DNA of 61,049 nucleotides from positions 1 to 61,049 of the forward strand of contig JAFSXD010000001.1 in the NCBI GenBank assembly GCA_017444245.1. The letters are read 5' to 3'. This document shows positions 5,690-60,368 of this stretch, one piece after another. A program made the position numbers and the translations under genes. Under the pieces are notes generated by a model. That model was not told the DNA's origin, did no database searches, and worked only from the letters and a program-made list of their open reading frames with translations. Numbering within the stretch: the stretch's first letter is position 1; each line of letters begins with the position of its first letter. Origin of the DNA: Selenomonadaceae bacterium (GTDB lineage Bacteria; Bacillota; Negativicutes; Selenomonadales; Selenomonadaceae).

Positions 5690-6466
5690 TTAGCCGCTGA
5701 TAATATCCATTATGCGCCCAACATAATTTTGAGTTTCACTGTACGGAGGGACGCCGCCATATTTTTGAACTGCGCCCGGCCCTGCGTTGTACGCGGCAAG
5801 AGCATGTTGAACGTTGCCGTTGAATTTGTCAAGCATTTGCCGCAAATAAATTGTCCCGCCTTCAATGTTTTGCGCTTTGTCATAGGGATTTACTCCAAGC
5901 GCGGCGGCAGTCTCCGGCATCAGTTGCATTACGCCGATTGCGCCGACGGGAGAAATTTCATTTTGATTCATGTCTGATTCGGCGATTGCAACTGCTCTGA
6001 CGAGTGAGGGAGAAACTCCGTTGCGACGTGCAGAAAGATTTATCAAATCTTCTGTGGAAGAATCGCGCGATTGTTCAAAGTTTGAATCCTTGTCCGGCGC
6101 GTCGTTGGGGCTTGGGGCTTTTAACTCCTCAAAAATTTTTTCGATTGACGAAGTCGACAAAATATTTGGCGTTGCGACGTTACCGGAAGTCAATGCGGCG
6201 ACAAAATCTGTGACGTTGACGGCGTCTTTTTTATTTGCGGACAAATCGGAAGAATTTTTTTCCGAAGCGGCGGCGTCTTTGTTCTCATGAATTTTTTCTT
6301 GACGAGAAATTTCGGCGTCCAATTTCGTTTGAAAGTCCGCACTGATTTTGTCCGCGCTCAAATTCTTTTCCGTCTCGACAAATTGATTTTGAATTGACGC
6401 TATCCGATTTTGAATCTGCGCAATTCTTGCGGGAACTCCGATTCGTTCAATGGGGTTTATTTCCAA
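5690..6466 (-). CDS. lytic transglycosylase (SLT domain) protein
   Basis: C-terminal motifs AESDMNQNEISPVGAIGVMQLMP and AAYNAGPGAV are present. Confidence 0.8.
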   Translation of the reverse strand: MEINPIERIGVPARIAQIQNRIASIQNQFVETEKNLSADKISADFQTKLDAEISRQEKIHENKDAAASEKNSSDLSANKKDAVNVTDFVAALTSGNVATPNILSTSSIEKIFEELKAPSPNDAPDKDSNFEQSRDSSTEDLINLSARRNGVSPSLVRAVAIAESDMNQNEISPVGAIGVMQLMPETAAALGVNPYDKAQNIEGGTIYLRQMLDKFNGNVQHALAAYNAGPGAVQKYGGVPPYSETQNYVGRIMDIISG

Positions 6467-7535: not shown

Positions 7536-9350
7536 TTATTCAAGCACAAAATTTTCATTCGCCGCGATAAATTTTTCTGCGTCCTTGAAGTTGGGAAAAT
7601 TTTTTTTAATCTTATCGAAGTCCCAATCCCACCACTTAACTTTCTGCAACGCGTCAATAATTTCCTGCGAAAAGCGATAATCAATAATCTGCGCGGGATT
7701 GCCGGCAACTATCGCGTAGGGCGGAACATCTTTTGTGACTACCGCGTTGTCCTCAATTATCGCGCCGTCGCCAATCACAAGCGGATTATCGGCGTCACTT
7801 GCAATTAAAGTTGCATCTGAATTTATTTTCACATCCGAGCCGATTAAAATTTTGTGCACTCCGTTTTGAATTTGAGTGCCTTCAAAATCATAGACGCTGA
7901 CAAAATTTTTTTCGGGCTTGCGGAAAAATTTTACTTTCACGTTGTCCAAAATTGAAGTGTAATTGCCGACGTGCATTTCCCCCAAAACATTTTTGCAACT
8001 GAACAAAATTTTTTTCGCGTAACTTTCTTTGCCAAGAGAAATTGCAACATTCCCGCCGACTAAAAAAATTCTTTGATGAACTGTTCGACTTTCGTCGCTA
8101 AATTCATTCCCTGCAATTTCGCCGTAAGCCATGCCTTCAGCAAAAAATTTTGGGAAATTTAAATTTGGAATTTGAAAAACTCTTCCGTCCAAAATTGCAT
8201 CTTGAGGAATTTGAAATGACTCAAGTATTTTCCGATGCTCATGAAAATTATTTCCCGCCATAACGACAGCTATTTCAAAGGAGGGCGGGTCTATAATTTT
8301 TCCGCCAAGCTTTTCGTAGAAAATAATTTCTCTTCCCTCAACAATCGCGTAGCCGACGATGTTTATAAAATCTTTTTCCTCAAACGGCTTGATGTAATTG
8401 TAAAGTTCATAGTTGAACGGATTCGTACTCCAAAGCAACGTCCTCTTTCCAAATTTCGATTTAATGGAAAGCGTTTCACTCAAGCCGCGTTTTTTCAAAA
8501 ATTCATTGGCAATTTTTACCATGTCGTCGGCAACTTGAAATTGCACTCTTCGTTGAAGATGATCTACAATTTCCAAGTAATCATCTCTGGAATTTACGTA
8601 CTCGCTGTAATTGATTAACTTAACATTATCGCAATCAGCAAATTCTTTTTCCAACAGAGGATTTATTTTTTTTCGTCTGGTCGCCTTGATTATCGAGGCT
8701 TTAGTTTCGTCATAAGCCGTTTCGATACCAAGCATGATAACCAGCAAAACTTTTTCGGGAATCAACGAACGGATTTTTTTGTAATTCTCTACAATTTCTT
8801 CCGGCTCAAGAGGTCCTTCGTATTCAAAGTTTTCACGGAAACGCCGTAGCATTTCGTAAGTATATTTCGCGTCGCAATACCACGCATCTTTTCCTGAAAC
8901 GTAGTCAGCCCACTTTTCTGAATCAGTCAAATCGTCCCAAGCTTTGAAAACTATACGAGCTCCGGTTTTTTTATTCCGATAAACATTCGCGTAAGTGTCA
9001 ACCAACGTGCTCAAGAAAATCACGTCGTAATTTCCGGAAAAAATTTCTGTTTCAAAACTTCTTGCGTCAATGAAAGGAAAATTTTTCGCCATGTCGTTTA
9101 TTTCTTCGGCGGGCAGGTAAGTTGATTCGATTATGTGCACGCTGTGACTTTGGGCGGAAATTAAAACTCCATGTTCGTTTACAAAATTTGTTTCTAAATC
9201 AACTTTGCCTAAGGATTGGAGAATTTGAAGTATTTGCAGAAGATCGCACGGACCTTTCATCAAAATTCGCGGTGCATTTTGCACAGTAATTTTTTCGGCG
9301 TCACTTGCTTGCGAAAAATATTTTTTAAGAGAAATCTCCTCAACCCAAAT
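7536..9350 (-). CDS. C-terminal fragment of a frameshifted multidomain glycan-modifying enzyme (unknown middle region plus left-handed beta-helix acetyltransferase)
   Basis: The frame continues directly from the C9 tract (..IWVEEISLKKYF..). The C-terminus GSDVKINSDATLIASDADNPLVIGDGAIIEDNAVVTKDVPPYAIVAGNPAQII is a hexapeptide-repeat acetyltransferase. The track ORF (to 9461) has a spurious N-terminus. Confidence 0.75.
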   Translation of the reverse strand: MWVEEISLKKYFSQASDAEKITVQNAPRILMKGPCDLLQILQILQSLGKVDLETNFVNEHGVLISAQSHSVHIIESTYLPAEEINDMAKNFPFIDARSFETEIFSGNYDVIFLSTLVDTYANVYRNKKTGARIVFKAWDDLTDSEKWADYVSGKDAWYCDAKYTYEMLRRFRENFEYEGPLEPEEIVENYKKIRSLIPEKVLLVIMLGIETAYDETKASIIKATRRKKINPLLEKEFADCDNVKLINYSEYVNSRDDYLEIVDHLQRRVQFQVADDMVKIANEFLKKRGLSETLSIKSKFGKRTLLWSTNPFNYELYNYIKPFEEKDFINIVGYAIVEGREIIFYEKLGGKIIDPPSFEIAVVMAGNNFHEHRKILESFQIPQDAILDGRVFQIPNLNFPKFFAEGMAYGEIAGNEFSDESRTVHQRIFLVGGNVAISLGKESYAKKILFSCKNVLGEMHVGNYTSILDNVKVKFFRKPEKNFVSVYDFEGTQIQNGVHKILIGSDVKINSDATLIASDADNPLVIGDGAIIEDNAVVTKDVPPYAIVAGNPAQIIDYRFSQEIIDALQKVKWWDWDFDKIKKNFPNFKDAEKFIAANENFVLE

Positions 9351-10234
9351 GGGGGGGGGTAGGAATTTAGTTGTGATGCGACTTCTCCTACAGTTGTAAT
9401 TTGTGGAAAATTTAATTTTGCGTAAATGAATTGTTCGACGCCCATGCCGAGCACGCGGCACGAAAATAAAAAATGTTGCAGACGATTTTCCACCGTGTCA
9501 AGGCAATAAAAACCGACTGCACCATAATCACCGAATTTGTCACGCACAAAAATCAATGCGCAATTATAGCGATCGTCTTCAACCAATTTTTCCAAATCAG
9601 ATTTTGAATCGCGGCGTTTCGTGAAGTTCAGCTGATTCGTTCGCGCAACCAACTCCGCAATGCGCTCAAGATTTTTTCTGCAGTCATGGGAAATTGCAAG
9701 CTGAATGTTGGCACTCTGTAAAAATTCTTCGTTAGACGCGGCGGATTTTTTTTCCGATTGCTTTTTCTCCAAAATTTTGTACCGGTTCAATCGTTCGTGT
9801 TTGGCGTCAGAAATTTTCAGCGAATCGGCCGCGCTATAAAGTTCGTCAAGATTTTTTGCGTCAAGCGTCATAATCTCCGGCAAATAAAATTTCGCCTCGC
9901 CCAAATTGCTTGAGTTGTCGTCGACGAACAAAACATTTTCTGCGCGAAGTCCCATATCGTCAAGCATGGACTTTATACGTTCGCCCTTAGGCGTCCAATC
10001 TATTGACGGAAAAACGAATAAATCCCAAATGTCCCACGCGATTAATTTTTCTTTGACGGGCTGAAAATCATTTTTTGAACAAATTGAATTGATAATGCCT
10101 GCGTCCGTTAATTTTCGTAGTGTTGAAAAATTTTTTTCAATCGGTGTAACGGGAATTTCTGAAGTTATCGTCCCCGCCCAAAATGTTTCGTCCAAATCCC
10201 AAATTACGAGCTTAACTTTTGTGATGTCAAACAT
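9260..10234 (-). CDS. N-terminal fragment: FkbH-like HAD-IIIC phosphatase domain
   Basis: Motifs seen: MFDITKVKLVIWDLDETFW (DxDxT), LFVDDN, RTNQLNFTKRR, DKFGDYGAVG and FLFSCRVLGMGVE. The last ~27 codons after the C9 tract are out-of-frame tail. Confidence 0.8.
   Translation of the reverse strand: MFDITKVKLVIWDLDETFWAGTITSEIPVTPIEKNFSTLRKLTDAGIINSICSKNDFQPVKEKLIAWDIWDLFVFPSIDWTPKGERIKSMLDDMGLRAENVLFVDDNSSNLGEAKFYLPEIMTLDAKNLDELYSAADSLKISDAKHERLNRYKILEKKQSEKKSAASNEEFLQSANIQLAISHDCRKNLERIAELVARTNQLNFTKRRDSKSDLEKLVEDDRYNCALIFVRDKFGDYGAVGFYCLDTVENRLQHFLFSCRVLGMGVEQFIYAKLNFPQITTVGEVASQLNSYPPPFGLRRFLLKNIFRKQVTPKKLLCKMHREF
9351..9359 (-). repeat. homopolymer C9 (minus strand) that splits the FkbH-HAD/acetyltransferase gene
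   Basis: There are nine G on the plus strand. The upstream frame reads ..SQLNSYPPP and the downstream frame ..PPPIWVEEISL. C10 or C7 would fuse the two frames. Confidence 0.9.
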
Positions 10235-12340: not shown

Positions 12341-12940
12341 TTAATTAAGCGTTATACCAAATTTTTGAATCAAGTCTTTGTGATTTTTGAGTTGCTCCAT
12401 GAACTCGGGCAAAATATTTTTCAAGTATGCAAGCTCCTGCGGATTTTCGGTAAGTTCAATACTTTTTGCGTAGCGGACATACGCAAGGAACGTTTCAAAA
12501 TCTTCTTGAGTATATTTTTCTGCTACGTCGTCGCCAAAATATTTTCGAAGATTTTCGCTGATAATGTAGCAGAAAGGTCCTCCATGCTGACTTTTAAAAA
12601 ACATAGAAATTTGCGAGTCAATGTAGATTGCATTTAATTTGTTGAACTGGTTTAAGCACAGTTGCACTACATTCAAATCACAAAATCGCGGAATTAAAAT
12701 ACTCTCCGTTTCATCTTTAAGAAATATTGTATTGTGCGAAACCGATCCGACTGTTGAAGCAAAAATTTCAGAATTTGCCAAAATATTGAGCTGTGCCTCA
12801 AGAGGAACCCTTTCAGGCTGTATTATGGAATAGCCCTTAGACTGAAAATAATTTGCCAGTCGTTCTTCTCCTATTTGTTTACCAAAACCGTGAAAAAAGT
12901 AGAACTTTTTTTCCGGCAGTGTCGAAAAATTTTTCTGCAT
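12341..12940 (-). CDS. C-terminal fragment of a frameshifted GT61/DUF563 glycosyltransferase
   Basis: EKKFYFFHGFGKQIGEERL..LNILANSEIFASTVGSVSHNTIFL is present. The same frame is open back to the G-tract (QKLLYTTEYAETIDRVRNFMQ..). Confidence 0.75.
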   Translation of the reverse strand: MQKNFSTLPEKKFYFFHGFGKQIGEERLANYFQSKGYSIIQPERVPLEAQLNILANSEIFASTVGSVSHNTIFLKDETESILIPRFCDLNVVQLCLNQFNKLNAIYIDSQISMFFKSQHGGPFCYIISENLRKYFGDDVAEKYTQEDFETFLAYVRYAKSIELTENPQELAYLKNILPEFMEQLKNHKDLIQKFGITLN

Positions 12941-13536
12941 AAAGTTTCGTACTCTGTCAATAGTTTCAGCATATTCGGTGGTGTAAAGCAGTTTCTGCCC
13001 CCCCCCCCCGCGTAGAAAAGCGACGGGTCAGGTAGAATCACGTTTTGAAATTTGGTTGCGTGTGTAATTATGTTTAATCTCGAAAGGTCTACTTCCAAAA
13101 CTTGAAGAAGTTTTACAAAATTGGGAATTATGTTCTGTCCCATTAAATTTACTGCCAGCTTACAAGTTGAAAAGTATCTTTTGTAAGGATCGCTAGTCAA
13201 AAACCACAATCTTTTTATGTGATCTGTCAGACAATGCCCCCAAACAGAATTAAAAGTTCCAAGAAAAATCACAGTTTCTGGACTAATTCGTAAATCTTCA
13301 TTTGGAGTGTAAACGTCGCCAATGCCTTCATGGACTGAAGTTCCTTCTACGAAATTTCCTTTGCCGTCAATGATGCCACCGAAACCATTTAATCCAAGAC
13401 GACCATCTAAATCTAAGTGTGGCAAAATTGTTCCATTCTCGATAATTCGGAAATGCAATTTTTTATCGGAGAAATGAGTTTCGTTTAGCTTGTCGCCAAA
13501 AAATTCTCTGTTATACAAACCGTCGTAGTTTACCAT
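12871..13536 (-). CDS. N-terminal fragment of the GT61/DUF563 glycosyltransferase
   Basis: FLGTFNSVWGHCLTDHIKRLWFL is a GT61-type GH..D...RL motif. The tail after the G12 tract is out of frame. Confidence 0.7.
   Translation of the reverse strand: MVNYDGLYNREFFGDKLNETHFSDKKLHFRIIENGTILPHLDLDGRLGLNGFGGIIDGKGNFVEGTSVHEGIGDVYTPNEDLRISPETVIFLGTFNSVWGHCLTDHIKRLWFLTSDPYKRYFSTCKLAVNLMGQNIIPNFVKLLQVLEVDLSRLNIITHATKFQNVILPDPSLFYAGGGGRNCFTPPNMLKLLTEYETLCRKIFRHCRKKSSTFFTVLVNK
12998..13009 (-). repeat. homopolymer G12 (minus strand) that splits the GT61 gene
   Basis: I counted twelve C on the plus strand. The upstream frame reads ..LFYAGGGG then goes out of frame. G13 or G10 would join it to QKLLYTTEY.. 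Confidence 0.9.
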
Positions 13537-52031: not shown

Positions 52032-53862
52032 TTTGAATCCAAAGGAGTTGATATTTTTCCATTTGTTTCAAAACGTGATCGAAGAAAGGTTTTGAAGTGT
52101 CGGGGTGCGCCAAGAAAAGTGAATAAGTTTTTTCAAGCGGAACTATCAAAAGCTTTGCTTGCTCCGTCAAAACTTCGGCAGAAATAATTGTGCGGGGATT
52201 TTGAATAAAAACATTTTCGTTAATCCAACCGCCTTTAGAAATGATATCCAACGCCTTGAACCAACCGTCGCCCTTGTCCAAACTTCGCGCCAACTTTCCT
52301 TCGACGACGAAAATCAAATTTTCCCTCAAAATATCCCCGTAAATTCTGTCGCCTTCAAATTTCGTGACAAGTTGAGTGCTGTCCGCGAAGAAAGCCAACG
52401 TGCCGCCGCCGCTGCCTTGAAGTATCGGATGCTGTACGATGAAGTTTGAAATAGTTTTTTTGTCGTCCGAAGATTGAAATTGCCCGCCTTCTTCAGTTTC
52501 GATTTTCATTTGGTGCATGAGTTTTTCCATAAAAGTTTTGAACGGCGAATGCCAATGCACGAGCATTTGACGCAAGACGAGATTGTAAATTCGCGCGAAA
52601 CGTTCACCGGCGTTTTGGAAAAATTTATTGGCGTCGTAGAGGAAAGTTAAAGATAAAGTTGTTTCCGCGTACTGAAAATAAATTCCGAGCTTGACGCCCT
52701 GCGGATCCCATGAATTTGTCGTGACGACTGCGCCAAAAGGTTCTGCCTTCGTCTCTGAATAAGTTGCCTCCTTCGTCCCCTTGAAGTCGAGGAAACTAAG
52801 GAAGTGATCAAAAGTTTTTCCCTTCGTCAATTCTTGGAGCGTGTCCCAATCAGAAAAACCGTAGGGTTGCGACACGACGAGTTGACGAAACTGTTGCGTT
52901 ATGATTTGTTCGATTGTCATATCGTCGGGACTTTTTTGGCGCACGGGAATGACATTGAACGCGGACTCATTGCCCTTTGAACCGGCACTGAATTGACAGA
53001 AAATCACGTCGTCAAGCGTGCGCGTTGACTGCAGGAAAAATCCCCATGCACTTTGCAAAATCGTCATCAACATTACGCGGCTTGACTTTGCTTTTTCGCG
53101 CAGGTCGGACAAAATATCTGCGGGAATATTTTCACGAAACGCCTTCGGATTGTACGGCGCATTTGAATGTTTCGCGTAAGGTAACGTCGGCATTTGCGGT
53201 AAATCTTTCAAAAGTTTTGACCAGTAATCGCGAATTGCCGTTTCAACATTTTTTTGTTGTGTGCCGCCGGAAATTTTTTTGACGCGCTTAAATTTTTCTA
53301 TGCCCAATGCCGAAAGGAAAAAATTTTTTGGATCGAAGGCATTTGAAATTAACCGCGACATCGTGACGAGGACAGCAAATTCATTTTCTTCCGTCTTTAA
53401 GATTGTGAATCGGATTAAATTACCGCGCTTCACGTCGAAATTAACGCGGCGGTCGGCTTCCATGATTTTCGTTAAAGTTTCGTCAATTTCTTCAGGGTCT
53501 GCTTGCGAAAGCGCGCGATAAACGACATCTGGCAAAGTGCGCCGCTCAACGAAAATAACTCTGACGGTTCGGTTTTCGAGTTCGCAAAAATTTGAACGAA
53601 AGGTGTCGTCACTTTTAACCATGTCATGGACAACGCGATTAAATTTTATCGGCGTGATGTCGCCTTGAACTTTGTAAAGCGTCTGCACAGAAAAATAGGG
53701 CGATATAAATTGTTTCTGCGCGAAGAAAACTTTTTCGTCCGTCGTCAACTCCTCAACTTTTTCAATTTGGTTGGGATTGTAGCCGACAGAGCCGGTAAGT
53801 TGCCGCCCATAAACTGTCTCCAAAATATTTTTTTCGGTCGCCGTTAATTTCAAAATGCTCAT
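52027..53862 (-). CDS. condensation (NRPS C)-like domain lacking the HHxxxDG histidines, fused to a cNMP-binding-like C-terminal domain
   Basis: FAVLVTMSRLISNAFD sits where HHxxxDG is expected. RDYWSKLLKDLPQMPTLPY and MTILQSAWGFFL are C-domain-like. The C-terminal LIFVVEGKLARSLDKGDGWFKALDIISKGGWINE is a CAP-type beta-barrel pattern. Confidence 0.55.
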   Translation of the reverse strand: MSILKLTATEKNILETVYGRQLTGSVGYNPNQIEKVEELTTDEKVFFAQKQFISPYFSVQTLYKVQGDITPIKFNRVVHDMVKSDDTFRSNFCELENRTVRVIFVERRTLPDVVYRALSQADPEEIDETLTKIMEADRRVNFDVKRGNLIRFTILKTEENEFAVLVTMSRLISNAFDPKNFFLSALGIEKFKRVKKISGGTQQKNVETAIRDYWSKLLKDLPQMPTLPYAKHSNAPYNPKAFRENIPADILSDLREKAKSSRVMLMTILQSAWGFFLQSTRTLDDVIFCQFSAGSKGNESAFNVIPVRQKSPDDMTIEQIITQQFRQLVVSQPYGFSDWDTLQELTKGKTFDHFLSFLDFKGTKEATYSETKAEPFGAVVTTNSWDPQGVKLGIYFQYAETTLSLTFLYDANKFFQNAGERFARIYNLVLRQMLVHWHSPFKTFMEKLMHQMKIETEEGGQFQSSDDKKTISNFIVQHPILQGSGGGTLAFFADSTQLVTKFEGDRIYGDILRENLIFVVEGKLARSLDKGDGWFKALDIISKGGWINENVFIQNPRTIISAEVLTEQAKLLIVPLEKTYSLFLAHPDTSKPFFDHVLKQMEKYQLLWIQS

Positions 53863-54061
53863 CTCCGTTACTGAAAACTTATAGAAAGTTGTAAACTCTT
53901 ATGTTTCATTCCTGATTCATCGCGTCCGCTTTTGCCGAAGCTACTCACGTTTGGTGTAACGCTCCACAGGCTTCAATTCCCCGCTAACGTACGGGTATTT
54001 TTTCAATCAGCTCGCGTATCGTTTTAAATTTATCGCCGCTTGTAAATCCCGGTCTATTTCG

Positions 54062-54127
54062 TTACCTCCTTACCAATTTTGTAGGACCTTTAGAATTTTT
54101 TACACCTTTTTTTCAACTGTTGAAAGC
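54062..54127 (-). promoter_or_regulatory. ~67-nt conserved leader element, copy 1, containing the palindrome TTTCAAC-N-GTTGAAA
   Basis: The minus strand reads GCTTTCAACAGTTGAAAAAAAGGTGTAAAAAATTCTAAAGGTCCTACAAAATTGGTAAGGAGGT, roughly four-fifths identical by eye to 60912-60978 on the plus strand. Confidence 0.6.
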
Positions 54128-54153
54128 TTTCTTTCATCTTCCAATCTGAAAAG

Positions 54154-54182
54154 AGAATACGACGCGGCAATTTAATTGTCAA
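54154..54182 (-). promoter_or_regulatory. candidate promoter of the 611-aa gene, implying a ~285-nt leader
   Basis: On the minus strand: TTGACA (54182-54177), a 17-nt spacer, then TATTCT (54159-54154). Confidence 0.4.
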
Positions 54183-54192
54183 GTTTAGCCGA

Positions 54193-54231
54193 AATAAAAA
54201 AAACTGACAACGAATTAAATCCGTCATCAGT
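54193..54231 (-). terminator. rho-independent terminator after the HPr-fusion gene
   Basis: On the minus strand: CTGATGACG-gatttaatt-CGTTGTCAG (imperfect stem) followed by TTTTTTTT. Confidence 0.5.
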
Positions 54232-54278
54232 TGGAAAAAGTTTAGTCAAAAAATTTCGTCAGAAAAAATCTCTCTGTA

Positions 54279-55961
54279 TCATGCCAAAACTTTTTTCAAG
54301 CCGTCAATGTATTCTTCCGTCGACGGCAAATAGATGTGTTGCCTGCTCTCAGCTACAGGTTCGGCAATTTCCGCAATAAGGTTGTATGCAAATTGCGGGC
54401 GATCTTTGGATGCGTACATGTCCTTCAAGGTATCGCCGTCCAACGTCTTACTAAGTTTATCGGCTATCGTGTCAGCTTCCGTTTTGTTAAGAATAAAATC
54501 AACTGAAACTGTCTGAAATTCATCTTCCAAAATCTTGCACATTTTCTTGCTGTCATCTTCGATAATTTCATCGGTTACAGCTTTTGAAACTTTGCTTGCC
54601 GCAGTGCTCGATAACCAAGCAGCAATTAACATTCCTACTGGTCCAAAGGGAGCACCCAACATCGCGCCGCCAATTCCGCCTGCGACTCCTGCGCCAGAGT
54701 TCACAACATTTTTGAAAAGTTGAGACGCCGAAATTCTGCCGCGAAGAATATTTATCACGTCGCCCGCTGACATAATCGCAACCGTTGCAATTCCCGTGAC
54801 AGCATTCCCGCGCAGTAACTTAGACGCACTTTTCATTGCCGCCGCCCCGTAAATACTCGTGCCTTCTCTGAAAGCATTCACCAAATGTGCTGACATCTTC
54901 GGACCCATAGCTTTAACGAGTGCATCGGACGCAGGAATAAGCATTGTGTTGAAGCCCGCCTTCGTAATTTGTCCCGCTACAATCGAACCTGCCCATGCCA
55001 TGCCGCCGACTTGCAAGCCCGCTTTAACCGAATTTTCCAAAGCAACTTCAAAAGATTCACCGTTCCAAATGCAAACCGCAAAATTTATCGCCGCAGAAAT
55101 TCCGCCACTGTACGCGCCAATTTTTATTCCGTCTATCGCGTCATAAGTCAATGATTCGATTGTTCCCGCCTTCGCAATATTTTTTGCCTGCTCGTAAGTC
55201 ACATTGCCTTTGCGGATAATGTCTTCAGCTTTTTTGACGCCGCGAATTTGTCCTCTATCAATTCGACTTTGCATTGCTCTAACCGCGTCGTCGTACTTAT
55301 CGGCGGGAACTTCAATTTGCATTGGCGAACCGTCACGATTGTAATAGCGAAATTCTCCGTTGTGGAAACATTCTTGAACACACTTTGAGCCGGTGGCACA
55401 GTACTTGCTTTGAATGTTCGCGCCGTTTACGAGTCTGTCCGCACCGTTTTTAGCGTTGTCGTCGCCGACAATGTGTGCGTCTTTGCCTGTCATTCTGTCG
55501 TACAAGTCATTGGCGCGTTCTGCGGCAAAACCATGCCCCTTTGAACCGTGAAATTTTTCTTCAAAGTAAACCTTTTCTGTACCAACAAAAGCACCTTGTG
55601 CAAGTCCTGTATTTTTTGCGCCGCGTGAAGGTTCATTATTTGAAAAATGAAACCCTTCCGCACTTTCTTCTTCCTCTTCAAGATCAACAAAATAGCCTTC
55701 TTCGCCGAACCTGCTATCTACGAGTCTCTTCAAAGTTTTCACTGCCTCGTATTCGTCAGGTCCATCCGCCGCGATAGTAATTTCCGTGCCTTTAGTCAAG
55801 CCCATGCTCATAATCATGAGAATACTTTTCGCGTCAACTCTTTTGCCTTTCGCTTTAATCCAAACTTTTGATTTGAACTTGGACGCAGTCTGCACGAACA
55901 CCGACGCGGGGCGCGCATGAATACCGGTTTTGTTTTCGATAGTAGTTGTAAGCTCAAACAT
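54279..55961 (-). CDS. HPr (PTS phosphocarrier) domain fused to a ~470-aa domain of unknown function with a Gly/Ala-rich membrane-active-looking C-terminal half
   Basis: The N-terminal 88 aa align to HPr: KTGIHARPASVFVQTASKF (His15), VDAKSILMIMSMGLTKG (Ser46), EITIAADGPDE. Next comes KGHGFAAERANDLYDRMTG..GDDNAKNGADRLVNGANIQSKYC, followed by GGISAAINF.., AGLQVGGMAWAGSIVAG.. and GAGVAGGIGGAMLGAPFGPVG. Confidence 0.8.
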   Translation of the reverse strand: MFELTTTIENKTGIHARPASVFVQTASKFKSKVWIKAKGKRVDAKSILMIMSMGLTKGTEITIAADGPDEYEAVKTLKRLVDSRFGEEGYFVDLEEEEESAEGFHFSNNEPSRGAKNTGLAQGAFVGTEKVYFEEKFHGSKGHGFAAERANDLYDRMTGKDAHIVGDDNAKNGADRLVNGANIQSKYCATGSKCVQECFHNGEFRYYNRDGSPMQIEVPADKYDDAVRAMQSRIDRGQIRGVKKAEDIIRKGNVTYEQAKNIAKAGTIESLTYDAIDGIKIGAYSGGISAAINFAVCIWNGESFEVALENSVKAGLQVGGMAWAGSIVAGQITKAGFNTMLIPASDALVKAMGPKMSAHLVNAFREGTSIYGAAAMKSASKLLRGNAVTGIATVAIMSAGDVINILRGRISASQLFKNVVNSGAGVAGGIGGAMLGAPFGPVGMLIAAWLSSTAASKVSKAVTDEIIEDDSKKMCKILEDEFQTVSVDFILNKTEADTIADKLSKTLDGDTLKDMYASKDRPQFAYNLIAEIAEPVAESRQHIYLPSTEEYIDGLKKVLA

Positions 55962-56019
55962 AAAATCCCTCCTTCACATTAACCAAAACTTATGAAATTA
56001 CGCAACATTCCTGCATTTT

Positions 56020-56049
56020 ATTCTACCCCCCCCCTCAAAGATTTGTCAA
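56020..56049 (-). promoter_or_regulatory. promoter of the HPr-fusion gene with a G9 tract in the spacer
   Basis: On the minus strand: TTGACA (56049-56044), aatctttga, G9, then TAGAAT (56025-56020). The spacer is 18 nt. A 58-nt leader ends in AAGGAGG and the ATG at 55961. Confidence 0.65.
56026..56034 (-). repeat. homopolymer G9 (minus strand) inside the promoter spacer
   Basis: I counted nine C on the plus strand (56026-56034). Confidence 0.95.
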
Positions 56050-56093
56050 GAATAGATTCAGAAAATTTTTGTCTTGAATTCATTCTACTTCCT

Positions 56094-56432
56094 TTAGTTT
56101 GCAAAATACTCCGCGATTTTCCAGCCCGCCGATTCAACCATTGCAACGGTCAAGATGCTTGGATGTATCATTGGACATGAAATTGGAATCCACATTCTCT
56201 TGGACAGGAATTGTTTGTTAAGTTTCTCCTGCGCAATCTTTGTTGCAAGAGTTTCTGAAATTGTAACATTGGAAACTTTTACCAACGCCATCGTCATTGT
56301 CGTAAGTGCTTTTTCGTCGACCGCGTCAAGCTCATAGGGTATCATTATATGATTTTTCCCCGACAACACGTCACGCGCATGGTGTTTAATGACGTCTTCG
56401 CACTGATGTTTTTCGGCTTTTGTCATCGCCAT
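56094..56432 (-). CDS. small DUF697-like paralog A (112 aa)
   Basis: MAMTKAEKHQCEDVI.. ..MVESAGWKIAEYFAN. It shares its termini and leader with paralog B. The DUF697 assignment is from memory of the family pattern. Confidence 0.65.
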   Translation of the reverse strand: MAMTKAEKHQCEDVIKHHARDVLSGKNHIMIPYELDAVDEKALTTMTMALVKVSNVTISETLATKIAQEKLNKQFLSKRMWIPISCPMIHPSILTVAMVESAGWKIAEYFAN

Positions 56433-56640
56433 GAAACATTCCTCCTCTGTGTGACTGAAAAATAATTTACCTGTGCATAAGATACAACAATCGCAATTTC
56501 ATTTTGTAATTGTCATTTCCCCATTCAGAAAATTTTTCACGGTTTAATAAATGTGAAGGAGCGCACGTCCTTGTACGCCCCCTCAACCCAAGTTCAAGTG
56601 CTGAACAGTATCCGTTTTCATGAAGAAATTTTAGTGGAGA

Positions 56641-56829
56641 CTATTTCATTTGTTTCAATTTTTCATCGTAGTATTTCACTCTGGCGTAATGTCTTTTTGC
56701 AATGCCATAGTGTGGACCTGCCTCAACGTCGTTGGACGCATTTTTAGCCGCCGCCCATTCGCGTTTGGCATTTTTCAAAGCACGATCCCGCGCACTTTCC
56801 GCAAGTTCACGCTTTCTTTCTTCCGTCAT
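56641..56829 (-). CDS. small charged helical protein (62 aa)
   Basis: MTEERKRELAESARDRALKNAKREW.. with an AAAGGAGGTG RBS. The track ORF starts further upstream, inside paralog B. Confidence 0.5.
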   Translation of the reverse strand: MTEERKRELAESARDRALKNAKREWAAAKNASNDVEAGPHYGIAKRHYARVKYYDEKLKQMK

Positions 56830-56833
56830 ATTT

Positions 56834-57184
56834 TCACCTCCTTTGATTCGCAAAATTTTCCGCGATTTGCCAACCCGCCGATTCAATCATTGTGACAGTC
56901 AACGCTGCTGATGCAATGTTTCCAAGTCCGGGAAAAATTTTCACGAACTCTGAAACAACCATTTTGCCTGCCAATTCTTTCAACGCGTTAACCGCCGTAG
57001 TTGCGGCAAGAGTTTCTGACATTGAAACGTTGAAAGTGTTTGCCAATGCCATCGTCATCGTCGTAAGTGCCGCCACGTTAATCGGCGTGCCGACTCCAGG
57101 TATCAGTGAACCACCAATGACAGCCCACGCGTGACCGTGAATGATGTCTTCGCACTGATGTTTTTCGGCTTTTGTCATCGCCAT
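56834..57184 (-). CDS. small DUF697-like paralog B (116 aa)
   Basis: MAMTKAEKHQCEDII..GGSLIPGVGTPINVAALTTMTMALA..FPGLGNIASAALTVTMIESAGWQIAENFANQRR. Confidence 0.65.
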   Translation of the reverse strand: MAMTKAEKHQCEDIIHGHAWAVIGGSLIPGVGTPINVAALTTMTMALANTFNVSMSETLAATTAVNALKELAGKMVVSEFVKIFPGLGNIASAALTVTMIESAGWQIAENFANQRR

Positions 57185-57393
57185 GAAACATTCCTCCTCT
57201 TTGTGACTGAAAAAATAATTTACCTGTACATAAGATACAACAATCGCAATTTCATTTTGTAATTGTCATTTCCCTATTCAGAAAATTTTTCACGGTTTAA
57301 TAAATGTGAAGGAGCGCACGTCCTTGTACGCCCCCTCAACTCAAGTTCAAGTGTTGAACAGTCTCCGTTTTCGTGAAGAAATTTTAGTGGAGA

Positions 57394-57450
57394 CTATTTC
57401 ATTTGTTTCAATTTTTCTTCGTAGTACTTTCTACTTCGGCGTATCTTTTG
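57394..57450 (-). pseudogene. decayed remnant of a second copy of the 62-aa gene
   Basis: The 3' end ctatttcatttgtttcaattttt.. is identical to 56641-56663. After that it diverges, with an internal deletion. Confidence 0.55.
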
Positions 57451-57461
57451 CCGTCCTGTCG

Positions 57462-57821
57462 TTAACTCCTTTGATTTGCAAAATTCTCCGCGATTTGCCA
57501 ACCCGCCATTTCAACCCTTTTATAAGCCGTTGGGTCAATCACCATAGGGATAAAACAAAATGGGAACATCAGAGGCTTCATCAACCCTGTTATCAACCCT
57601 GAAACGAAGGGCAATTTAGCCAATTCTTCTTCGACGTTTTTCAGCGCGTTAACCGCCGTAGTGTTAGCAAGAGCTTCCGTCATCGAAACGTTGAAAACTT
57701 TTGCAAGAGCCAGCGTCATTTTTGTGAGTTCTGCCAAATTCACAGGCGCGCAACCAATCACAGCGGCACACTTGCAAATGATGTCCTTGCACAATTTTTT
57801 TTCAGCCTTTGTAATTTTCAT
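57462..57821 (-). CDS. small DUF697-like paralog C (119 aa)
   Basis: MKITKAEKKLCKDII.. ..VEMAGWQIAENFANQRS. Confidence 0.6.
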   Translation of the reverse strand: MKITKAEKKLCKDIICKCAAVIGCAPVNLAELTKMTLALAKVFNVSMTEALANTTAVNALKNVEEELAKLPFVSGLITGLMKPLMFPFCFIPMVIDPTAYKRVEMAGWQIAENFANQRS

Positions 57822-57909
57822 AAAAACTTCTCCAATCGATTAAGTGAAAAGTTATCTTCGACGCGCCCCGCGCATTTTGTACGAGGACGCGTTTTTTTTC
57901 TTCCGTCAA

Positions 57910-58269
57910 TTATTGACGTCTTTGATGCGCAAAATCTTCTGCCATTTGCCAGCCCGCCAATTCAACCGTTGTGCATGTCAACGAAACCGGCAAAGTCTCT
58001 CCCCTGTTGGGAAATTTTTCTATGTACTCTCTAACATTGATTCTGCGTTCAACTTCTTTCAGCATGTTAACCGCCGTAATTGTTGCAAGAGTTTTAGTCA
58101 TTGAAACCTTAAACATTTTCGCCAACGTCCGCGTCATCTTTGTAATTTCTTCCAGATTAACGGTAGGACCAAATTTTGTTTTGAGCGATCCGCCGATGGA
58201 ATGCTTTGTGTGATAGCGAATGATTTGTTCACATTTTTGACGTTCGGCTTTGGTAATCAACGTTCTCAT
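57910..58269 (-). CDS. small DUF697-like paralog D (119 aa)
   Basis: ..ITKAERQKCEQII.. ..VELAGWQMAEDFAHQRRQ. Confidence 0.6.
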   Translation of the reverse strand: MRTLITKAERQKCEQIIRYHTKHSIGGSLKTKFGPTVNLEEITKMTRTLAKMFKVSMTKTLATITAVNMLKEVERRINVREYIEKFPNRGETLPVSLTCTTVELAGWQMAEDFAHQRRQ

Positions 58270-58315
58270 GAAAAATTCCTCCTGTAATTCAGAAAAGTTT
58301 TACCGACAAAATTTT

Positions 58316-58579
58316 TTACTGTGAAAATTTGTCAACGAGCAAGTCGAAAATATTTCTTGCCAAATCACGCGGCGTGTGTGACAAATCCGCGCCCTTCGAC
58401 CTGTTGTCGTGTTTGCACATCGCCTGCAAGTTCCAATCGCTGTCCGGTCCGCCGTATTTTTGCGGGATAATGTGATCCACGTCCATTTCGGACTTTCTGA
58501 AATTCTTTCCGCACTCGGGGCATTTGTGCCAGCCGCCGTGCGTTTTGTGCGAATCGAAGTAGTCTTTCCTGTAACCCAT
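58316..58579 (-). CDS. mini HNH endonuclease (87 aa)
   Basis: CPECGKNF..MDVDHIIPQKYGGPDSDWNLQAMCKHDNRSKG. The ATG at 58579 follows an AGAGGAGGAAA RBS. Confidence 0.8.
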   Translation of the reverse strand: MGYRKDYFDSHKTHGGWHKCPECGKNFRKSEMDVDHIIPQKYGGPDSDWNLQAMCKHDNRSKGADLSHTPRDLARNIFDLLVDKFSQ

Positions 58580-58739
58580 AAAAAAATTTCCTCCTCTGTA
58601 AATCACCAAAAAATTCATTTAAAGTTGCTTGCAATATTCAGTTTTCAAAGAACCCTTCAAAAAAGTTTTTACTTTTCTGTTGTCGAGCGTCGAAGTATTT
58701 GTCGCCGACCGCTGTTGAAACCTCCTACTGTAATAATAA

Positions 58740-59015
58740 AACACTCGGGATTTTATTTTGTAATTGTCATTTCCGCGTTCAGAAAAATTTTTTTGGAAGT
58801 TTTATTCTAGTCTCTTTAGTGTGCAAAATTCTGCGTTCAGAAAAATTTTTTTGAAATTTATTCCGGTCTCTTTCGTGTGCAAAATATTCCGCGATCTGCC
58901 GACCCGCCGATTCAATTTCATCTTCTCTGTGTGACTGAAAAAATTTATCCATGTGTAAGATACACCAAGCGCAATTTCAATTTGTAATTGTCACTTCCGC
59001 GTTCAAAGATTTTTT
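58740..59015 (-). pseudogene. stack of collapsed paralog copies: leader fragments fused directly to paralog 3' ends
   Basis: 58745-58790 and 58960-59010 repeat the leader core (attttgtaattgtcatttcc..ttcagaaaa). 58866-58916 is a paralog 3' end (..IESAG.QIAEYFAH) joined straight to the RBS-proximal leader (ctctgtgtgactgaaaaa). Confidence 0.6.
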
Positions 59016-59093
59016 AAACTTTCTTTGTGGGCAGGAAATTTTAGCCGCCGTAAAGAATTAAACAAAAAACTTTTCATTGGGGGGAAAAATTTT

Positions 59094-60368
59094 ATGGGTT
59101 TAATTCAAGCGGCGATTAGTGCTGTCGGCGGAACGCTCGGAGATCAATGGAAGGAACTTTTCTATTGTGACAGTTTAGGCGCGGATATTTTGGCGGCAAA
59201 AGGACATCGTCGCACGCGCAGAGGAAGTTCCAACGCCGGCGACGATAACATCATTACGGACGGGTCGCTTATCTCCGTGAACAACGGGCAATGCATGATG
59301 ATCGTTGAGCAAGGAAAAGTTGTAGACTTCTGCGCGGAGCCCGGCGAATACACGTACGACAAAGGAACTGCGCCTTCGCTTTTCTCCGGTGGCAGTCTCG
59401 CTTCAAACATTCAAGCAGTTTTTCATGAAATTGGCAGACGTTTCACTTTCGGCGGCGACACGGGAAAAGATCAGCGCATTTACTATTTCAACACGAAAGA
59501 AATTGTCGGCAACAAGTACGGTACGCCGAGCCCCGTTCCCTTCCGCGTCGTCGATTACAATATCGGCTTGGACGTGGACATTGCGATAAAATGTTTTGGT
59601 TCGTACAGCTACAAGATCGTCAATCCGATTTTGTTTTACACAAACGTTTGCGGCAACGTGGCAGAAACTTATAATCGTTCGGAAATTGATGCGCAGTTGA
59701 AAACGGAATTGATGACGGCGTTGCAACCTGCCTTCGCAAAAATTTCTGAAATGGGCATTCGTTACAGCGCACTGCCGGGACATACTCAAGAAATTGCCGA
59801 CGCGTTGAACGAAGTCTTAAGCAAGAAATGGGGCGAACTGCGCGGCTTGCAAGTCGTATCTTTCGGCGTCTCCAACGTCAGCGCAAGCGAAGAAGATGCC
59901 GCAATGATTAAGGAAATGCAACGTAACGGCGCATTGAGAAATCCGGCAATGGCGGCGGCTCATTTGACGGGCGCACAAGCAAGCGCAATGCAAGCGGCGG
60001 CGAACAACACGGCAGGCGCAATGACAGGATTCATGGGCATGGGCATGGCGCAGAACGCAGGCGGTGCTAATCCCGCAAATCTTTTCGCTATGGCTCAACA
60101 ACAAACTCAACCTCAACAGAATCAACCGCCCACATGGAAATGTCCGTCTTGCGGCAACGAAGGCAATCGAGGAAATTTCTGCATGAATTGCGGCGCAAAA
60201 AAACCTGCACCTGTCGCCGGTTGGAAATGCGAATGCGGCGCGACCAATACAGGAAGATTCTGTTCAGAGTGCGGCAAACCGAAACCTGCTTCAGACGAAT
60301 GGACTTGTTCATGCGGCGCAGTCAACAAAGGAAAATTCTGCGCGGAATGCGGAAAACCCAGAGCGTAA
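59094..60368 (+). CDS. SPFH-domain protein of the COG4260/YdjI type with three C-terminal zinc ribbons
   Basis: MGLIQAAISAVGGTLGDQWKE.. Then CPSCGNEGNRGNFCMNCG, CECGATNTGRFCSECG and CSCGAVNKGKFCAECG. The ATG at 59094 follows a GGGGGG run. Confidence 0.75.
   Translation: MGLIQAAISAVGGTLGDQWKELFYCDSLGADILAAKGHRRTRRGSSNAGDDNIITDGSLISVNNGQCMMIVEQGKVVDFCAEPGEYTYDKGTAPSLFSGGSLASNIQAVFHEIGRRFTFGGDTGKDQRIYYFNTKEIVGNKYGTPSPVPFRVVDYNIGLDVDIAIKCFGSYSYKIVNPILFYTNVCGNVAETYNRSEIDAQLKTELMTALQPAFAKISEMGIRYSALPGHTQEIADALNEVLSKKWGELRGLQVVSFGVSNVSASEEDAAMIKEMQRNGALRNPAMAAAHLTGAQASAMQAAANNTAGAMTGFMGMGMAQNAGGANPANLFAMAQQQTQPQQNQPPTWKCPSCGNEGNRGNFCMNCGAKKPAPVAGWKCECGATNTGRFCSECGKPKPASDEWTCSCGAVNKGKFCAECGKPRA

Follow-up and report, generated by a model that had tools for sequence, protein, structure and literature searches.

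A nine-guanine tract in the promoter spacer of a Selenomonadaceae HPr::YeeR_C fusion gene: a candidate slippage-prone element for graded transcription

Why should an uninterrupted run of nine guanines occupy half of the spacer of a near-consensus promoter, directly ahead of a gene encoding an HPr-domain fusion protein? The question arises at one locus of the 61,049-nt stretch of DNA analysed here (the window). The reading favored below, to which we assign a probability of roughly 0.68, is that this G9 tract is a slippage-prone repeat that tunes a sigma-70 (SigA)-type promoter serving one gene only, HPr::YeeR_C. The features on which the argument turns are as follows:

56049-56044, minus strand: -35 hexamer TTGACA, matching the consensus at 6/6 positions
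56043-56035, minus strand: aatctttga, the 9-nt half of the spacer outside the repeat (direct reading)
56034-56026, minus strand: G9 homopolymer, the proposed slippage-prone spacer-length element (run count)
56025-56020, minus strand: -10 hexamer TAGAAT, adjoining G9 directly, 5/6 consensus
55962..56013, minus strand: predicted 5' UTR (from sequence; start site inferred)
55973-55968, minus strand: Shine-Dalgarno AGGAGG, inside the predicted 5' UTR (from sequence)
54279..55961, minus strand: HPr::YeeR_C gene, encoding a 560-aa fusion (ORF and domain searches)
54232-54202, minus strand: terminator-like hairpin plus T-run, 47 nt past the stop codon; a 14-pair stem, then TTTTTTATTT

Read directly from the minus strand of the window, the promoter is cTTGACAaatctttgaGGGGGGGGGTAGAATaaaatgc, which bears out the first-pass annotation in its description of a TTGACA-aatctttga-G9-TAGAAT arrangement with an 18-nt spacer, half of it G9; the match to the sigma-70-type consensus is 11/12, and the arithmetic given there (17 nt for G8, 18 nt for G9, 19 nt for G10) is also correct. 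In a consensus scan, this is the top promoter-like site in 53800-59200. The tract thus lies, at the level of sequence, between the -35 and -10 hexamers, and with nine bases it reaches the length at which G/C homopolymers can slip (from ~8 upward). The first in-frame ATG of the ORF is located 58 nt downstream of the -10 hexamer, and transcription would start ~7 nt after the latter, near 56012-56014. This distance, together with the AGGAGG motif, places G9 upstream of the transcript and outside the coding sequence, and the hairpin that follows the gene implies that the promoter serves HPr::YeeR_C alone. Two other assignments were considered for this region. A 42-aa ORF spanning G9 (56018-56146) was judged spurious, and for the stretch between the genes both an RNA element and a terminator were ruled out, since neither significant RNA structure (z 0.46) nor any Rfam match was found in the intergenic region and 5' UTR. 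Likewise, no terminator or stable hairpin was found between the stop of the upstream same-strand gene (56094) and the -35 hexamer.

The product of the controlled gene begins with an HPr domain at residues 1-88 (Pfam PTS-HPr, E 1.8e-30; TIGR01003), in which direct reading finds both His15 and Ser46. A YeeR_C domain (PF27347) follows from about residue 139, as labelled by precomputed Pfam annotation on the orthologue P0001, and residues 139-239 are 51% identical to residues 406-507 of E. coli YeeR, that is, to its C-terminal ~100 aa. Beyond this domain come Gly-rich hydrophobic helices, with hydrophobic segments at 279-299, 385-408 and 419-452. No signal peptide was found, which, together with the cytoplasmic HPr domain, argues that the product is not the kind of surface antigen that usually motivates phase variation. 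The AlphaFold model has a mean pLDDT of 67.6, with residues 130-290 at 80-97; Foldseek returned no PDB match for it, and no relative of solved structure was found beyond HPr. A PADLOC defence-system search of the product gave no match and PHROG a weak match only. Among YeeR_C relatives, the N-terminal modules include HPr, ACP (acyl-carrier PP-binding), zinc ribbons, RnfB-N, TerD, an EF-Tu-type GTPase and aldose epimerase. With the N-terminal 170 aa as query, many Selenomonadaceae HPr-domain proteins of 93-293 aa also came up, compared with the canonical 88 aa, some of them fused to TPR repeats; HPr-domain fusions therefore seem to be common in this family.

The nearest named relatives of the YeeR_C core, of the HPr domain and of the condensation-domain protein encoded downstream come from Selenomonadaceae MAGs, Mitsuokella and Quinella, and the rest of the window carries chromosomal housekeeping genes such as carB, pyrD, prfC and mqnA, a combination that points to a probable Selenomonadaceae (Negativicutes) chromosome. 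Upstream of the promoter, a tandem array on the minus strand (56094-58269) comprises four small paralogues, 112-119 aa long, that share the ending ESAGW(Q/K)IAE(N/Y)FAN, plus a 62-aa gene. Its intergenic units of ~300 nt are repeated at ~95% identity (56388-56688 and 57140-57443), and both carry the same 13-pair hairpin (56554-56585 and 57307-57338). The array genes had no family match save a weak PADLOC candidate, PDC-S29, for the 116-aa paralogue (E 0.0011). The array is bordered by a gene for an HNH endonuclease (58316-58618) and by a divergent gene that combines SPFH/Band7 with a zinc ribbon (59025-60368). On the other side of the fusion gene, a strong match to the RAGATH-18 orphan RNA motif (RF03064; 53909-53970, minus strand; 73.8 bits, where the gathering score is 44.9) is located in the leader of the condensation-domain gene, which also encodes a cNMP-binding-like domain (608/611 aa), downstream of a promoter-like site at 54182-54154.

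The tract and its position are hard to attribute to chance. G-runs of lengths 1 to 6 number 9240, 1576, 230, 36, 4 and 1 in the window, and C-runs of the same lengths number 8736, 1988, 328, 46, 13 and 1; there are no G/C runs of 7 or 8, and then three of at least 9 (9, 9 and 12), where 0.07 are expected per window under a Markov order-1 model and 0.02 under order-3 (an order-5 control was dropped, as it was trained by the tracts themselves). The G9 at 56026-56034 is thus a far outlier of the run-length distribution, and the earlier count of it as the third G/C homopolymer of at least 9 nt in the window holds, the others being a G9 at 9351-9359 and a C12 at 12998-13009. The hexamers stand out as well: promoter matches of at least 11/12 occur five times in the window, compared with 1.2 expected in random sequence, and each of the five directly precedes an ORF and has a spacer of 16-18 nt. 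An 18-nt spacer is also found in another strong promoter of the window (47682-47653); the window as a whole offers too few promoters for a spacer-length census to be of use. That the five strong sites all precede ORFs indicates that this organism uses canonical SigA/sigma-70 promoters and makes the hexamer pair around G9 credible. It is very unlikely that so rare a tract came to lie wholly within one of five such spacers by coincidence.

The first-pass annotation had proposed comparing the tract in related genomes, and this comparison supports it: a G10 tract is present in a strain 99.59% identical, and a G10 architecture is kept in a diverged orthologue. The exact 112-aa protein encoded upstream was found on two other metagenome contigs, L001 and L002. 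Over 5351 nt, L001 shares 99.59% identity with the window, from which 19 substitutions and three indels set it apart; it carries the same promoter with G10 in place of G9. All three indels are located in homopolymers (A4/A3, T6/T5 and G9/G10), so an indel at the G9 tract is not unique, and the difference between G9 and G10 could partly be a homopolymer consensus error of two short-read metagenome assemblies. L002 ends inside the -35 hexamer, 12 nt ahead of the tract, a break that hints, at best, at length heterogeneity. The sole other HPr::YeeR_C fusion found (L003; protein P0001) shares 74% amino-acid and ~85% nucleotide identity with that of the window and is syntenic with it downstream of the fusion gene. 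Its upstream region reads TTGACA-aagcgcata-G10-TATAAT, the TATAAT again adjoining the tract. In the alignment, the -35 TTGACA is identical in the window, L001 and L003, and the tract, the -10 hexamer and the 9-nt offset are conserved between the window and L003, with 4/9 of the non-G spacer bases matching, a pattern that would be the expected footprint of a functional promoter whose spacer is half homopolymer. Tract length is therefore polymorphic between close strains, with alleles of 9, 10 and 10 (n=3, all from short-read assemblies), none of which gives the optimal 17-nt spacing.

Other routes to further alleles were followed. The HPr fusion, MqnA and the 611-aa ORF, the last also in its called 608-aa form, had no hits in exact-protein look-ups, and a look-up of the 62-aa neighbor gave no new allele. 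Genome and metagenome scans with the fusion protein recovered only distant YeeR_C genes, without an HPr domain or an upstream tract, and the search with the N-terminal 170 aa recovered free or otherwise-fused HPr proteins and no further HPr::YeeR_C orthologue. Orthologues of the downstream condensation-domain gene, used as a route to promoters, led to one long-enough contig (L021), which lacks a YeeR_C gene.

Closely related YeeR_C genes that lack HPr extend the comparison. An ACP::YeeR_C fusion (L018; protein P0002), 79% identical, has a promoter of the form TTGACT-aaac-G12-taagg-TATAAT, in which the G12 (1757-1768) sets the hexamers 21 nt apart as assembled, a spacing predicted to be non-permissive. 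The same gene carries a C9 (1909-1917) ten codons downstream of a well-placed ATG, where only C8 or C11 would keep the frame, so that both tracts of L018 appear to be OFF as assembled. At a third locus (L019), a homologous promoter contains an interrupted, decayed tract, G5AGG (GGGGGAGG). Among the YeeR_C relatives examined, runs of at least 8 are confined to these close relatives: no such tract was found in distant YeeR_C genes from Selenomonadaceae MAGs, other metagenomes and viral contigs, including none of the 6 relatives recovered in a viral-contig scan. The switch would thus be a feature of one sub-lineage, whose YeeR_C fusion genes, judging from these repeats, carry both transcriptional and translational switches. 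A further observation concerns their origin. In L020, the YeeR_C gene lies 13 nt after argS (1986-1999), and a remnant of the argS 3'-end is present upstream of the YeeR_C genes in L018 (1810-1880) and L019 (415-495), which suggests that the YeeR_C gene may have left an argS operon and gained its own repeat-bearing promoter.

These comparisons bear on the alternative that survives best, namely that the tract is mutable but neutral, the gene being transcribed mainly by read-through from the upstream small-gene array or from another start, the promoter-like hexamers adding little, and the repeat drifting in length without phenotype. The stretch between the upstream stop and the -35 hexamer, free of any terminator or stable hairpin, would permit such read-through, and the lack of a 17-nt allele among the three orthologous promoters is also what drift would allow. 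Nevertheless, an 11/12 match that exactly frames G9 is unlikely to arise by chance, the hexamers and the 9-nt offset have been kept in L003 while the adjoining bases have diverged, and a neutral tract of 9-10 G would be expected to decay, as it has in L019. Neutrality is thus unlikely, and a tuned promoter accounts better for the conserved arrangement.

The two remaining long homopolymers of the window indicate what such repeats may do elsewhere in this genome. The G9 at 9351-9359 (plus strand; the genes are on the minus strand) is located in the overlap of ORFs 9260-10234 and 7536-9461, where it comes between an FkbH domain and a hexapeptide acetyltransferase; at a length of 10 or 7, the two would form one fused ORF of 899 aa. 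The C12 at 12998-13009 (plus strand; genes again on the minus strand), associated with ORFs 12871-13536 and 12341-12940, splits a GT61-like glycosyltransferase; a length of 13 or 10 brings back an ORF of 398 aa. Since changes in length fuse the former pair and restore the latter reading frame, both are contingency genes of the frameshift type, OFF as assembled, and in both the homopolymer is placed so that changes of +/-1 toggle genes. In a Selenomonadaceae MAG from water buffalo (L004), a G9 at 6150-6158 lies ten codons into a short ORF, and the shifted frame runs on as a longer ORF; this is likely another translational switch in the family. Collectively, the placement of these repeats indicates that an animal-gut Selenomonadaceae lineage may run a set of poly-G/C contingency loci.

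The same loci weigh against a second alternative, in which the tract is a fixed cis element, either a regulator binding site or a rigid G/C spacer holding the promoter at a low, unvarying strength, and the difference between G9 and G10 is assembly or sequencing noise. Long homopolymers are indeed mis-called in short-read assemblies, the L002 contig breaks shortly before the tract, and the length difference seen is of one base only. Against this, the tract is present in all three independent assemblies, which derive from different samples, each of the two coding-region tracts of the window misses the reading frame by just one base, and L018 has two out-of-phase tracts on one gene. Out-of-phase tracts in the window and in L018 form a pattern typical of true contingency loci and not of fixed elements, which makes a fixed element improbable, more so than neutral drift. 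As for an artefact, whether two-color Illumina poly-G read-through (poly-G is known from that chemistry) or a chimeric join, it is hardly credible and effectively refuted, as the tract is contig-internal with unique sequence on both sides, and independent assemblies, like a diverged species, have it in the same position.

How, then, would a slippage-prone G9 tune the HPr::YeeR_C promoter? Slipped-strand mispairing during replication would add or remove a G and thereby change both the length of the spacer and how the two hexamers are rotated relative to each other. The optimal spacing for sigma-70-type promoters is 17 +/- 1 nt, and the predicted ranking is that G8 (17 nt) would be best, G9 (18 nt) usable, G10 (19 nt) poor and G11 or more effectively off. 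Given that another strong promoter of the window uses 18 nt, the G9 allele of the window is probably active but sub-optimal; L001 and L003, with G10, probably have weak promoters. A clonal population would then always be mixed, with heritable, reversible differences in the level of HPr::YeeR_C. As no terminator was found upstream, some expression may be independent of the tract; unblocked read-through from the upstream small-gene array could add such a floor and make the output graded. From the arrangement and its comparative record we infer promoter activity, length-dependent transcription and frequent reversible switching. The first-pass annotation had proposed a transcriptional phase or rheostat switch, and the comparative tracts support this; of its two forms, a graded rheostat is favored by the missing upstream terminator and by the 18-nt spacer used elsewhere in the window, and a strict on/off switch is less likely.

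Repeat-driven phase variation is known mostly from host-adapted pathogens such as Neisseria, Haemophilus, Campylobacter, Helicobacter and Treponema, and a literature search returned no report of it for Selenomonas, Selenomonadaceae or Negativicutes. The mechanism proposed here is therefore textbook, and what is new is the lineage of the host and the type of gene under control. An intracellular HPr-fusion under such a switch, instead of a surface antigen, would offer a handle on why a YeeR_C protein is expressed in part of a population. Additionally, poly-G/C tracts make genes look like pseudogenes and break contigs in MAGs, and they are worth recognizing in annotation.

The only characterized relative of the core domain of the product is E. 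coli YeeR, whose gene is reported to belong to the flu-yeeR-irmA unit, transcribed from the phase-variable promoter of flu (Ag43; PMC9431211). A YeeR_C-domain protein would thus again be under stochastic on/off control. Unlike a poly-G promoter, however, the flu switch is epigenetic (Dam/OxyR), and E. coli YeeR differs from HPr::YeeR_C in domain order, only the ~100-aa domain being common to both; the parallel is suggestive and may be coincidental. A wider reading, rather unlikely at present, is that YeeR_C proteins are costly membrane-acting effectors with interchangeable N-terminal modules (HPr, ACP, an EF-Tu-type GTPase, TerD and RnfB-N among them), which in this Selenomonadaceae lineage would be kept mostly silent and stochastically released by poly-G/C switches in promoter and coding region, much as E. 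coli yeeR depends on the flu promoter. Such an effector could be, for example, a phage- or stress-sensing abortive system in which an N-terminal module copying a core host protein serves as sensor or decoy. If true, phase variation would be a recurring regulatory need of the YeeR_C family and not an incident of one promoter.

The first-pass annotation had likened the architecture of the HPr::YeeR_C promoter to Neisseria porA and opc and to the Haemophilus hif promoters, and only the first of these analogies fits. In Haemophilus influenzae, the repeat of hifA/hifB is a TA dinucleotide located in overlapping divergent promoters, not a homopolymer. At Neisseria opc, as the cited account describes it, a poly-C tract overlaps the -35 instead of lying in the spacer (PMC7864442). 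Both loci resemble the present proposal in that promoter activity depends on repeat length, but the architecture differs in both.

The porA promoter of Neisseria meningitidis, in the account cited, carries a poly-G tract between -35 and -10, with ~17 nt as the best spacing and high, medium or no output (PMC7864442; PMC5084427 lists the primary reference). It shares with the HPr::YeeR_C promoter a G homopolymer inside the spacer of a sigma-70-type promoter. In contrast, the porA product is a surface porin exposed to immune selection in a pathogenic proteobacterium, whereas the present gene encodes a cytoplasm-facing HPr-fusion of a probable Selenomonadaceae gut commensal. Similarly, tp0126 of Treponema pallidum, which encodes an OmpW homologue, has a poly-G between its -35 and -10 and is transcribed optimally at 17 nt (PMC7864442). 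The T. pallidum loci were validated by fragment-length analysis and GFP reporters, whereas the HPr::YeeR_C promoter is known, in this comparison as in that with porA, from its sequence; moreover, the genes of this spirochaete encode outer-membrane proteins, and the tprL tract overlaps the -10. At tprL, a promoter with 8 G is active and one with 10 G is near background (PMC7864442). Across the poly-G promoters of this species (tp0126, tprE/G/J and tprL), tracts of 7-11 G vary within strains (PMC7864442), a range that covers the 9-10 G of the HPr::YeeR_C promoter.
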